Shown: piece by piece, positions 1 through 10,022 of the stretch
How positions within the stretch are numbered: position 1 is the first letter of the stretch
How the letters are laid out: each line of letters opens with the position of its first letter
Assembly (NCBI GenBank): GCA_028534125.1
Contig: CM052823.1
Span: 74,276,001 to 74,340,000 of the forward strand
Length of the DNA: 64,000 bases
From: Lama glama
Lineage: Eukaryota
Direction: 5' to 3'
Made by a program: the position numbers and the translations under genes
Notes under the pieces: generated by a model
What the model was told of the DNA's origin: nothing
Database searches by the model: none
What the model saw: the letters and a program-made list of their open reading frames with translations, nothing else

Positions 1-643
1 CAGTTTGGACAGATAACCAGAGATCTTACACTATGACACGTCTATGAGTGGGAGAGACAGATGAGAGGAGAGAGCTTAGGAGACAGTCTGCAGTGAGAGA
101 GTTCTGTCGGTGAAGGAACACCATGAGCTCCAAGAAGCTCATTTCTTCTCATCTTCTCTACTACACTAAAAGACTTCAGAAGAATTCAGCCAAAGTAACA
201 AGAACCTCTATATGCGGAGGATGTGTAGTCCTTTCTACCAGAAAAGCTGATGGTTTTAAGGAAAACACTAAATTAAAAATATAATTTTACAAGCCATGTA
301 TTTCTCAAAATATTAGCTACATAGAAATTTTTTTAAAAAATTGTACAACAGATTGCTACTCCTCCCATCACATGGAACTAGACAGCCCCTGTGTTGAGTT
401 CTGTCTCTCAAAATATACTTAAGTCTACATAAAACCTGTTTACATCCTGATGTTTAGCTGTTTTTCAGTAAAAGTTTGCTGAACAAATGAAGTAATAGGA
501 TTAGTTTCCAACCATAGTCCTTTTCTCCCAAGAACAAGTTGTTCACAAAGAAGTGATTTTTTTCAACTTTTTGCAAAGGGAGACCTGAATCTCTTGGAAA
601 ATCTGAATAAGCTCATGCGTCTTCTCACAAAAACTGCATATAC

Positions 644-838
644 AGGGGCTGGGAGGAGGGTGCCAACAGAGGGAAAGTGCTTAATGTGTAAGAGATTTTA
701 TTTTGGGTGATGGAAATGTTTTGGAACTAGATAGAAGAGGTGTTTGCATTACATTGTGAATGTACTGAATTGTTCATTTTAAAATGGTTAATTTCTAGAT
801 TGTGAATTTCACCTCAGTAAATTATTTAAATAAATAAT
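644..838 (+). mobile_element. Old L1 (L1MB-like) 3' end
   Basis: Resembles the L1M 3' UTR (ggtgatggaaatgttttggaactagatag...gtgaatttcacctcagtaa). CTGCATATAC is repeated on both flanks (about 634-643 and 866-875) as a TSD. Confidence 0.7.
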
Positions 839-1587
839 GAAATGCACCCCGCCCCCCCAAAAAAGCTGCATATACTGACACCCTATAGAAAATCACACCC
901 ACAATTTCAGAGGACTCATCACCTCCTGGGGGCCTAGTCGTGGACTGCCTTAGGAGATGCGAGGTGAAGAATCTCTGTAACTAGCCAAACTTACAACATG
1001 TGAGCATCTACTCTGCTAACACGGTCAAGTACAAAGCTACACAGTTGTGCGTGACTAACAAGAGAGCCACTCAGAATCCAGACAATAGCAAACTTATTCG
1101 AGTTCATCTGCTAAATTACCCAGTTATCTGTACCTTACTACTCTTCTCCAGGATTTGCTTTATGTTTGTCAACTGCTGAGCGGGGTGGAACAGGAAAAGG
1201 TTTATCTGAAAGGGAAATATTTTGCTCCTCTTCAATAACTTTTACAAAGAAAAAGAGGGCAAAGGGCAAAATGCAGTATGTATGTATGGTTACCAGTTAT
1301 TGTAAGAAAATCTAAATCAACCATCTCTGGGGAGAACACACCCATGCATTTTTCCGATTATAGGCAGGCATCTCCCCAGCTCCTGGTTGATCTTTACAGC
1401 ACCTCTCCTAGCAGGAATCTCAGTTTGGATTCTGAGGTAATACAGACTGACCTTTGGAGTTCGGGGTTTTTGAGCATGACCCACCCATTCTCCACGTATG
1501 GCGCCTACAATAAATGCTGCACTTCCCTTCACCACAAAAAAAAAAAGATCGACCTTTTATTTAAAAAACTGCTAATAAATTTATACT

Positions 1588-1770
1588 TTATAGCACAGGG
1601 AACTATATTCAATATTTGTAGTAACTTATAGTTTAAAACAATATGAAAATGAATATATGCTTGTTCCTATATGGCTGAAGTATTGTGCTGTACACCAGAA
1701 ATTGACAACACTGTAAACTGACTGTACCTTCAATAAAAATATATTAAAAAAAAAAGAAATTAAAAAATAA
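1588..1770 (+). mobile_element. 5'-truncated cetartiodactyl-type L1 3' end
   Basis: tatagcacagggaactatattcaata...gctgtacaccagaaattgaca...cttcaataaaaa plus an A-rich tail. The same motif recurs about 10 times in the window. Confidence 0.8.
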
Positions 1771-3368
1771 AGGCTCCCTCCCCCCAAAAAACAACAGCTC
1801 ATAGCAAACTGACAGCACAAAAGAGATACCAGAAGAAACATTCCCAGAAACAAAAGACTGCAGGTACTCTGGAATCACCACTTTGCAAAGCAGTTATGCA
1901 ATTATATGTAGAAGCTAACATCAATGCTCTGCTCTGCTAAAAAAAAAAAAAAAAAACTCACAGAGTATAACAGTGGAAAAGACCTTAATCAACACCTTCA
2001 ATTTATGGTTCAGGAGTCTGAAGCCAACTCAGCACAGAATTAAGATTTAGTTCTGTGTTCTAGTCTAGGATTCTTCTATTGAGGGAGCTGGGGAGGAGAG
2101 AAGGAGAATGGAGTGGGCACAGGAGTCTTGAACAGATGAAGAACTGCTCCCAGCCCTCCCCTGTGTAATGGTGCCTAAGTCAGCAGAGAATGGGGAGAAC
2201 TCAACCCTGCATGGAAAAGCCCCCAGGCTTCACCCCTCCCATCATGCAAGCCTCCTTTCTCTCCACAGCCAACTTTCATGCTGCTACCCAAACACAGCCA
2301 AGGTTAACAAAACCATAGCTCAAATTCCATTTGTTTCAATATTATATAAAGTAGAGTTTTCAATAATTTGTCACAGCTCCTGTCTTTCCCCATTCCTATA
2401 TATCCTTCGCACTGATCAAATTCACAATATTTCTCTATATAAAAAGAATAAAAAGCCAGATAGGAAAATAAATCTAATAAAAACATATACAAAAGTAAAA
2501 TAAAATGAAATGGTATACAAACAATTATTATTGCCAGTCATGCCATCTAATATAGCTCTACCTAAATCATGGAAACATTTAGGGTCAGCTGTATAAATAA
2601 GAAATAACAATCAGGGTGACTTTTCAGTGTGGTAGGATTTTCCATACCCTCACATCTTATTTTTCTTCTCTTTTTTCCCTGGGTTACATAAACTCTGAAA
2701 TTACATTAAGAAAAATGATCTCTGAAATTTTATTCATTCAAATGATTACCTGGGGCTTTGAAGCACAAGCAAACCCATCACCTGACTTACCCTCAGCCCA
2801 CAACATTTTATTCCCTTTGGGGGCAAAGATAACAGAAACAGCGAAATATGCTCAAGTTTCATATCTAACTAACTTTCGATCAGACTCTCTTCCCTATTTT
2901 ATTTATTATACTATTCTCAAAATCAACTCTTCTCTCAAGAATCATTTCTAGACAATCTTTATTGACAGGTTAATAACCAAACTCTGGGAGACCCAAGAAG
3001 GGCTTTCTACTGGTTAAACTCCCAGGACAGCCTCTCAAGTCCAGGCTGGCTCCCAGACCACTCATTTCTTTCTGTCTGAATTGTCCTAGGACACACGAGC
3101 AATATGCATAAGATAAATACTTTACAAGTAAAGAACTAGCAACGTGAGAACCGAGAAGGTGTTAACCAACCCGACAAGAGGAAAGATTTCCAAAATTCTG
3201 CCTTCTGGGGATATTCACAGATAAACCTCTCTGGGCTTTTACATTTACTCATACTTAAACACCTATTGCAAACCCACAATTTCCACATGACGAACCACAA
3301 AATGTCAGTTATAAAAAATAACCAGTTTTACTTGTTTATAAGAGTGGCTCATGTGAAATCATCCCAAC

Positions 3369-3569
3369 CTGTTCTTTAAGTGCAGTAACTGTGGCATCCA
3401 GCTTCCTTTGTAAGGACGACACCTGCTCTTCGTATTTCTTCGTGAGGCCTGTAACGATGCTCTCGTGCTGCTCTCTGGCACGCTGAAGTGACTCCGAATG
3501 CCGGAGGTCCAGCAGCTGCTGCTTCAGGCTGTCCAGGGCCATTTCGGTTGTTCTGCACTTCTTCACCAT
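3369..3569 (-). CDS. CEP152: CEP152 coding exon 9 (201 nt, coiled-coil region)
   Basis: ctag|ATGGTG...GAACAG|gttggg. Encodes [67 protein letters not shown], matching mammalian CEP152. The next canonical exon is not in the window. Confidence 0.96.
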
Positions 3570-4005
3570 CTAGTGAATGCACACAAAATGCTGATGTTTA
3601 CAGGACTCTGAGTTTTGACTCTAAAAACCAACCATGCTTAAATAGGAGTAAAGAAAAGGTCTCCCCATCAGGGCTCTAGTTCCTCAAGATTTCCCTAGCT
3701 GGGACCTACAAGGCCCATGGTTGCTGGAAACACTTCACGGAGAAAAAAGTCTGTAGTTATTCAAGGAGAGTGCAAGACGATTTTGTGCAACGTGATGGCA
3801 CTGTGGGTACCACAGTGTGGGTACCAGGCTAGGAACCCGCTGCTACTACACCAGTCCCAGTGCTGTTTGCATCGTTCTCTGGAAATCCAATTGTTAGGTC
3901 ATAGGAAAATGACAACTGTTTCGTTAAAGACTGATGAAACCTGTGAATAGTCATTTACTAAAAACAGTTTTGAAAGCTATAACGGTAGTCGTTGCAAAGT
4001 AACAG

Positions 4006-8144: not shown

Positions 8145-8285
8145 CTTGGATCATCAGAAGCTGGTGATTCAGATATCTAATTTGACGTTCACTTTCATTT
8201 AACTTTTCAACTAAATTGTCTAGTTGTCTCTCTTTTGCTTTGTTAAGAACCTGAAGTTGAATAATCTGCATATTTTCCACAGAGT
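8145..8285 (-). CDS. CEP152: CEP152 coding exon 7 (141 nt)
   Basis: aagcag|ACTCTGTG...ATCCAAG|gtaagc. Encodes (N)[46 protein letters not shown], phase 1 to 1. Confidence 0.96.
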
Positions 8286-8354
8286 CTGCTTTGGAATTAA
8301 AGACAATTTATTAGAGAAGAGCACATCAAAATATAAACTTGTGGTCATTTAGGG

Positions 8355-8866
8355 CAGTGTTTTTTAAACTGTGAACACAACTCATTAGAGTAGCATGAGA
8401 TCAATTCAGCGGACTGTGACTAGTGTATTTTAAAGAACAATGTTACTGAACCAAGACTTCGGTCTGCTCGCCCGCACGCAGTAAAGCCAAAGTACTCAGT
8501 TATGGTGAAGGAGAGTGCAGTGTTTATTGTACGGCACCATACAAAAAGTTGGGGCTTTTTGACTATTAGCTGTCCCGGACTCCTCACCTGGCACCTTAAA
8601 ATCAATGTGGCACTTTCCTTGGCCACAACCCAATGTAAGTAGATTAGCTTTACTGAGCGCTGGTGAGCAGACCCAGGTTTTGGTTTGGTAACAACAAGAT
8701 AGGATATAATAGAATATTTCACCATGCATCATGTAGTATAAATATTATTATGTAAAATGTCTGTTTCATTTCTGTATTTATATAGATAAGTATTGCAGAG
8801 AATATCACAAGGTAAAAAATGTACTTCTTACAACGGTCACTGCCAGAAAAATTGGAAAAGTCACTA
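8355..8866. mobile_element. Old non-autonomous hAT-Charlie-type DNA transposon (MER113-like), interrupted at 8441-8697
   Basis: The cagtgttttttaaactg...tggaaaagtcacta ends and the internal segments resemble the recalled consensus on both sides of the insertion. Confidence 0.55.
8441..8693. mobile_element. Insertion of two inverted ERV-LTR termini (TGTTAC...GTAACA) with ACAA target-site duplication
   Basis: The left 50 nt and the reverse complement of the right 50 nt match at 40/50. ACAA occurs at 8437-8440 and 8694-8697. The arms resemble a laurasiatherian ERV1 LTR end. Confidence 0.75.
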
Positions 8867-10022
8867 TTTAAGTGTTTAACCCTGAATCACTACCATTCTG
8901 GCTGATGAAAAATAAGCATATACCAATTACAATGGAAAAGAGCTCCATGCTCTCATAAAATTTTTTTTAAAAGTGCATCAACTTCTATAAAACCATTGTC
9001 AAAGAAAATTTCTAGATATCCTTCTCAAAATATTTTATTTTAAGCAGGAATGAACTGATATTTATACTGGTACATAACTGCTGAATTAATGAATTAATGA
9101 ATAGATTAGTAAAGAATTTTGAGGTCTTCTTTCAGAAACAAAGTCATTTTAAGGACCACTTAAAAAAATCATTGAGGGGAATAAAAGAAAAAAGTGATTC
9201 ACAGGAGAAGCATAATCCTTCAACTATACAATGACCAATATTTTTCATTTCCTACAAGAACAATGCTTCTACTTACTAATGAATAAAACAGTCCTCTTTT
9301 TTTAAAAGATATGGTTAAGCTCCAAAAAATGAAGACTGAAAACTTTATTACAAGTCAACTCTGCTTGGGCCTTAGAGTAGGGCTCACCCAGGAATAAACA
9401 GTGTACAAGCCACACCTCTCTTCAAACTTTTTTTAAACTACTGTTACTAAGAAGCTATAATCACTAAATTTGGCACAACCGTTAAGTTATTTAATTAACT
9501 TCCAAATATCAAATTTGGGCAAATGTGTAATAACTTGGACAAGGAAAAAATCAACTTGATAAAATACAGATCCTTAAGAAAGTGATGCAAGGTTATGTTT
9601 GCAAAAAGACCAGGAGATACAACGTAATAACACAGTAGAAATGAAATAACGCCAGGATGTCAGGCCACCATCGTGATGTTCATTTACTCAACCCCAAATC
9701 ACTTATGCCCCACACACGGCCCACTTCCTCATCTCTTCACTCCACAAAGACTTAGGAACAAAGAGAGGCTGTCCCCATATTTGCTGTTGAGTCTTCAGGG
9801 GAAAGTGAGTTTTGGTCTCCCCCATAGGCTTCCTGCAGCCTGAGTATAGGATGGAAGCAGGACTATGAAGTGAAGCCACTAAGTCCAGTTTCCTCCCTGG
9901 CATATCCCAGGAAACCCAGAATATCCAACAGGACTTTCCCTCCGCTTCTTAAAAATCAAACAAAGAAAAAACTTGCTGTCACACTCTAGAATCACACTGG
10001 CTCTTCAAGACACACAATAACT

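Follow-up and report, generated by a model that had tools for sequence, protein, structure and literature searches.

The window, a 64,000-nucleotide stretch of the llama (Lama glama) genome, contains a discrete insertion of 253 bp made of two inverted arms and flanked on both sides by the tetranucleotide ACAA (Table 1). The initial annotation had described this unit and its 4-bp flanking repeats, and both were confirmed. The insertion appears to interrupt an older repeat spanning positions 8355-8866, which we take to be DNA-transposon-like, and the annotation had further proposed that this host repeat resumes past the insert. The flanks of the unit do show weak, colinear similarity to the older repeat at three loci, which had been chosen with motifs from both flanks, making the result partly circular. 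The underlying motif search returned 46 matches, versus 18 in the control. A DNA search for continuity of the host repeat returned the window itself as its sole match, and a BLAST search of the flanks against the collected loci yielded nothing useful. The bases immediately outside the host repeat (8347-8354 versus 8867-8874) agree at 5 of 8 positions, weakly resembling the 8-bp duplication that we assume to be a feature of hAT-type families. No Rfam match was obtained in 8300-8900 at E-values up to 1, and no tandem repeat was detected at the unit.

Table 1. Positions of the inverted-arm unit, its components and the surrounding host repeat (numbering of the 64,000-nt window)
Feature	Coordinates	Strand	Length	Remarks
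Older host repeat, left part	8355..8436	.		Starts CAGTG; weak alignment to L095, L097, L103
Left target-site duplication copy, ACAA	8437..8440	+		4-bp duplications also flank ordinary solo LTRs of this family
Inverted-arm unit	8441-8693		253 bp	Starts TGTTAC, ends GTAACA; TG...CA termini
Short arm	8441..8549	-		Distal R and U5 (final ~109 bp of the LTR) in inverted orientation; integrase-type TG...CA end
Short-arm poly(A) signal, AATAAA	8523..8528	-		From the sequence and alignment with ordinary LTRs
Joint, five bases common to both arms	8545..8549	+		AAAGT in the window; predicted first bases of the viral RNA
Long arm	8545..8693	+		LTR sense; last 149 bp of the LTR
Unpaired loop	8550..8578	+	29 nt	Ordinary proximal R, LTR sense
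ACTCC	8579..8583	+		Complementary to the joint motif; predicted site of priming
Long-arm poly(A) signal, decayed (AATCAA)	8600..8605	+		From alignment with ordinary LTRs
Right target-site duplication copy, ACAA	8694..8697	+		
Older host repeat, right part	8698..8866	.		Weak alignment to ~8770; end approximate, read off the sequence

As originally reported, the termini of the two arms are identical at 40 of 50 positions without gaps, and the similarity can be followed over approximately 100 nt; the gapped alignment scores 84, versus a mean of 17 and a maximum of 33 for 1,000 shuffled sequences. Folded as DNA, the unit has a z-score of -4.99, and none of 200 shuffled sequences folded equally well. 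The ordinary LTRs related to the unit measure approximately 475-770 bp, with 500-650 bp taken as the size of the parent LTR, and their 3' ends match positions ~107-253 of the unit in one orientation and positions 1-105 in the other. The unit hence comprises two arms, one long (149 bp) and one short (109 bp), that share five bases (149 + 109 - 5 = 253) and abut with zero foreign spacer. These matches on opposite strands bear out the proposal that a single target-site duplication encloses two outward-facing copies of one LTR 3' end. They also set the unit apart from the layout of a solo LTR (U3-R-U5 in a single orientation), given that U3 is absent and the left 109 bp are an inverted R-U5 segment. 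The unit does have the shape of a MITE, with long terminal inverted repeats, a target duplication and no coding sequence, and to that extent the label 'MITE-like' was apt; the label covers shape alone, and the arms are plain LTR ends. Lacking a U3 promoter, a coding sequence and any sign of self-copying, the unit in the window is a dead, neutral fossil.

An assembly fold-back artefact was considered as the source of the inverted arms and ruled out, since the arms are only ~70-80% alike (20-30% diverged) and the insertion is present in 14 DNA sequencing runs. At least 0.94 of the words of region 8200-8950 were present in 14 of the 24 listed runs, which carry 4 organism labels (3 rows may correspond to the source), indicating that the insert is real and widespread in the group. 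The 6 RNA runs contain just 0.05-0.27 of the same words.

A genome search using the window unit as query yielded 470 candidates, 40 of which were scored; these gave at least 66 matches, the majority of which are ordinary LTRs. In 25 ordinary copies, the position equivalent to the start of the long arm coincides with a GGAGT motif; a TTTAAAA/TATAAAA box lies approximately 29 bases ahead of this motif, and AATAAA follows 55 bases after it. Relative to these copies, one arm of the unit runs from 29 bases past a TATA-like box, whose spacing predicts the RNA start, to the terminal CA, and from this arrangement of sequence signals we infer that the long arm represents R-U5 from the start of the viral RNA. 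Among 16 ordinary LTRs, the 4-bp duplication is exact in 5, matches at 3 of 4 bases in 6 (one of them with a boundary off by a base) and is worse in the remaining 5. On the basis of these 4-bp duplications, we presume the parent LTR to belong to ERV1. An exact U5 17-mer occurs 245 times in the genome; in two samples of LTRs, 12 of 25 and 1 of 15 carry it unchanged, which roughly places the family at some 500-3,700 ends; as a rough lower bound, two-armed units would then represent at least about 0.3-2.5% of that number. No internal coding region or pol was found in the loci collected. Near-identical LTR pieces also occur on tiny G000 contigs (C245546, C335976, C337211, C546390, C547166, C746596, C746892, C748514 and C748715), and these are a collapsed multicopy segment containing the parent LTR.

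The genome-wide check of the junction recommended in the initial annotation yielded 12 further two-armed units, 10 in the first LTR family and 2 in a second one. Including the window, the first family presents such units at 11 independent loci (window, L032-L037, L039, L059, L067 and L079; L040 is a duplicate of L039 and is not counted separately, and L009 is the same locus as L032), and the second family, which has an unlike U5, contributes L038 and L072. The 13 units span 220-259 bp, and L077, L080 and L063 are partial cases. The joint pattern search identified 7 loci, versus 0 in the control, and a looser joint pattern gave 51 matches, versus 1 per strand in the control, many of which are ordinary LTRs (15 and 20 were inspected as loci, 1 was already known and 15 were judged by matched text alone). 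Most two-armed units came from searches in which the joint was part of the pattern. Such patterns select for the joint, and the fair tests are hence the joint-independent searches based on distant anchors separated by gaps of up to 300 or 500 bases. These returned L033, L035 and L039/L040; together with L009, a full unit recovered with the window unit as query, the GGAGT joint is present in 4 of 4 first-family loci besides the window. The corresponding tally for the second family is 1 of 2, the exception being L094 (L094:1467-2040; G000:C2, near 22270450), an element of ~575 bp with two U5 ends in which both arms extend into U3, the joint lies in U3 and there is no duplication.

The joint motif is GGAGT in most of the other units and AAAGT in the window. 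To the left of GGAGT the units present short-arm bases (CAA or similar), where 22 of 25 ordinary LTRs have a G, and to its right the units continue with R; these two boundaries map the joint to five bases. Other inverted repeats of 6-8 bp near the joint are unused. A control search for elements with two U3 ends returned a single locus, L092 (L092:1492-1818; G000:C37:54433143-54433469), which spans 327 bp and has two outward U3 starts and TG...CA ends, without a duplication; it is possibly a plus-strand counterpart of the two-armed units or two fused LTRs. Several individual loci present features of their own. At L038 (1392-1652), in the second family, the joint carries a 12-bp tandem repeat, and GTCAT is repeated 2-3 bases outside each end, which suggests an aberrant insertion. 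L063 (979-1645) has an R-U5 arm with the usual joint, after which come ~10 bp belonging to the short arm, AT-rich filler sequence and an inverted LTR that begins around U3 position 92; it may be a deleted element of the L037 type described below. L039 and L040 (G000:C66703) are identical inverted duplicates ~1 Mb apart (3094 of 3094 bases), as are L013 and L014 (G000:C961247), also ~1 Mb apart; both pairs are large palindromic or duplicated segments.

Among the 10 free-standing units, the 4-bp duplication is exact in 4, matches at 3 of 4 bases in 1, at 2 of 4 in 3 and at 1 of 4 in 2. Four exact duplications in ten units have a probability of about 1e-7, and it is therefore likely that integrase inserted them. 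The window unit combines TG...CA ends with a duplication of the length typical of the family, matching at 4 of 4 bases. Left flanks agree with inverted right flanks at 0-4 of 10 bases, and so are not inverted copies of them.

In 3 of the 13 units (L032, L059 and L037), the short arm continues, 4 bases past its CA, into a tRNA-Arg primer-binding 18-mer. Compared with the tRNA-Arg genes of the genome, this 18-mer matches at 17 of 18 positions in L032 (CCT), 17 of 18 in L059 (CCT variant) and 16 of 18 in L037 (TCG); in the other 10 units, and next to any long arm, the best match is 9 of 18, and by this comparison the window copy itself has no primer-binding site. All three primer sites are on the short arm, as predicted by extension of a self-primed strand. 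The leaders that follow them in L032, L059 and L037 are homologous for ~200 bases and then end at different points, and the loci collected include no ordinary 5' LTR followed by this leader. L050 (G000:C24, near 41426000-41428500) contains four tRNA-Arg genes, three CCT and one TCG, within 1.7 kb.

The three units with a primer site belong to composite elements. L037 (732-1657) is a 926-bp mini-provirus consisting of the hairpin unit, the tRNA-Arg primer site, ~195 bp of leader and a normal 3' LTR; its leader jumps at a short AAGGAAA match into the U3 of that LTR, which has the U3-R-U5 layout in the sense of the provirus. L032 (858-1649) and L059 (minus strand, ~1911-1400) present instead a U3 start, an inverted leader, an inverted primer site and the hairpin unit. 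The inverted U3 start that terminates these elements (~50 bases in L032, ~70 in L059) makes their outer ends the two natural priming points of reverse transcription, and they may have formed when the 3' end of a plus strand annealed to that of a self-primed strand. None of the composite elements has a clean duplication (1 of 4 bases in L032, 2 of 4 in L037, one end lost in L059).

In our assessment, the unit in the window is probably an integrated self- or cross-primed minus-strand strong-stop DNA (R-U5), likely inserted by integrase. During reverse transcription, a tRNA primes the copying of U5 and R, and the copy ends at the first base of the RNA. The ACTCC at the 3' end of this strong-stop DNA would pair with GGAGT approximately 30 bases inward, located either on that molecule itself or on its twin transcribed from a second packaged RNA. 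Extension of the paired end by reverse transcriptase, back through U5 and into the tRNA, would yield the 253 bases and add a primer-binding site to the short arm. Read along its minus strand, the unit would then consist of U5-R up to the RNA start, a turn at ACTCC/GGAGT, U5 again and the primer site. The position of the joint, at an RNA-start-proximal GGAGT lying 29 bases from a TATA-like box and provided with an ACTCC complement, fits strong-stop self-priming. Once double-stranded, the extended product would have an integrase end on each side and could be inserted directly, a variant of this route being that two strong-stop DNAs prime each other and integrate as a 250-bp duplex. [quoted passage not shown] L037 looks like a provirus with the hairpin as its 5' LTR, and provirus formation followed by collapse seems at most slightly more likely than direct insertion. 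In ordinary copies, GGAGT is complementary to an ACTCC ~30 bases downstream, with a mean of 3.9 of 5 bases paired and an intact stem in 8 of 25; the predicted pairing probability of the 3' end is at least 0.5 in 5 of 25 ordinary LTRs, all of them among the 8 whose stem is intact, which makes the priming step plausible rather than strong. The weak points of the mechanism are a pairing of 5 bp, an RNA start that is predicted, and the joints of L092 and L094, which lie elsewhere. The proposal gives specific form to an option of the initial annotation that the data support, a fold-back or template switch followed by insertion by integrase.

Other processes could bring two LTR ends into this arrangement. 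Two head-to-head LTRs, or two viral ends in one integration, might have been joined by a later deletion or repair, with ACAA being due to chance or to paired integration. The arms are indeed as diverged from each other as from other copies of the family, and L094 and L092 may be such cases, but random deletion would scatter breakpoints over hundreds of bases, and in 4 of 4 joint-independent loci both fall within the same five-base motif; exact duplications in 4 of 10 units are likewise difficult to accommodate. The fixed joint thus disfavours the two-donor origin with deletion that had been put forward earlier, which we regard as very improbable and, for the canonical units, as largely refuted. 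A template switch during host replication or repair, acting at GGAGT/ACTCC in an integrated LTR and replacing U3 with an inverted duplication, would exploit an inverted repeat that ordinary LTRs do contain. L032 and L059 can be drawn as an inverted duplication within a 5' LTR followed by solo-LTR recombination, and L092 and L094 are examples of other inverted joints. To generate the free-standing units, however, copying would need to end precisely on the terminal CA and to reconnect precisely with the left duplication, their flanks are direct rather than inverted, and inverted repeats of equal or greater length nearby were left unused. We hence deem a host template switch improbable.

It is also conceivable that one or two founder hairpins gave rise by amplification to a small non-autonomous family, consisting of MITEs mobilized by an integrase-like transposase or of a hairpin-LTR provirus lineage. 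Ginger-type transposons have TG ends and 4-bp duplications, the length range and joint are common to the 13 units, and old copies of one identical-armed founder would give the star-like identities observed. The units, however, belong to two LTR families with unlike U5, carry three primer-site sequences of two tRNA-Arg types with leaders that end at different points, lack a promoter and are no closer to each other (identity of 0.715 between long arms and 0.757 between short arms) than to ordinary LTRs (0.757). When closer relatives of the window subtype were sought, at low sensitivity, an ordinary LTR was the sole match. In addition, the arms of each unit share variants of their own: close to the terminus, an additional base is present in each window arm, and each L037 arm has an additional A ahead of AATAAA. 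Arm identity within units (0.752) and between units (0.741) did not differ significantly (p = 0.10), whereas rare variants common to both arms of a unit exceeded those of permuted pairs (p = 0.014 for non-CpG columns, p = 0.018 for all columns) in a weighted test that was devised after the alignment had been seen. These rare shared states lean towards separate parents for the units. Amplification from a founder therefore appears unlikely to a marked degree, and of the small non-autonomous family envisaged at the outset, the many copies stand, but they look like independent events from different parents. The differing primer sites, subtypes and LTR families point instead to repeated independent events rather than to one MITE family, and two LTR families with different primer sites make at least four origins likely. 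The arms have diverged by ~19% at non-CpG columns (23% in the window copy); if substitutions accumulate at around 2e-9 per site per year, the units would be roughly 45-60 million years old.

Compared with known systems, the units share TG...CA ends, a 4-bp duplication and the same R-U5 with solo LTRs of what we take to be ERV1 or gammaretrovirus-like elements, from which they differ in that U3 is replaced by an inverted copy of R-U5. With MITEs and Ginger-type transposons, as we understand them, they share short length, lack of coding sequence, long terminal inverted repeats, TG ends and a 4-bp duplication; unlike these, their arms are plain LTR ends, 3 copies run into a primer site and leader, and no amplified lineage was seen. 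The integrated HIV-1 proviruses with asymmetric LTRs described in PMC9278108, where unequal LTRs are ascribed to strand transfer between the products of two packaged genomes, offer a further parallel, but they differ in having 3' LTR deletions, and the relevant passages of that source mention neither self-priming nor an inverted U5 end.

The closest precedent is the self-priming of HIV-1 strong-stop DNA in vitro, presented in section 5.1 of PMC6088434 as a dead end that is suppressed by nucleocapsid and undetected in endogenous reactions. There too, according to that section, a 3' end pairs inside the strong-stop DNA at the start-of-R hairpin and is extended through U5; the present units, by contrast, are double-stranded, integrated in the germ line with a duplication, derived from an extinct non-lentiviral element and based on a 5-bp stem. 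Section 8 of PMC4668388 (Masuda et al. 2015) describes abortive in vitro products in which the strong-stop 3' end anneals, inter- or intra-molecularly, to a short G-rich internal match, in a manner dependent on the G-run at the start of the RNA, and is extended to the end of the primer RNA. As proposed here, the two-armed units resemble these products in their short internal match and in their extension to the primer end, and differ from them in being integrated, a fate absent from the passages of that section. No report of an integrated or endogenous self-primed strong-stop form was found in the full-text literature, in which older virology is thinly covered and a prior description is possible.

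Beyond the window, we consider it on balance credible that mammalian genomes contain an unrecognised, recurrent class of insertions, formed by self-primed strong-stop DNA that was rescued and integrated and that sometimes replaced plus-strand strong-stop DNA and hence the whole 5' LTR. If so, these insertions would be in vivo proof that a supposed dead-end product reaches the germ line, their joints would pinpoint, to within about 5 nucleotides, where the RNAs of extinct retroviruses began, and the form should recur in other LTR retroelements. Strong-stop self-priming is a standard argument for the need for nucleocapsid in reverse transcription; the units suggest that self-priming happened repeatedly in real infections and was followed by integration, and the question of whether it occurs in vivo becomes testable with existing genomes. 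They also call for caution with MITE-looking elements that have TG...CA ends, which can be retroviral by-products. Elsewhere in the window, positions 1496-1537 are 84% identical over 43 bp to the poly(A)-signal region of the unit arms and represent another LTR remnant.
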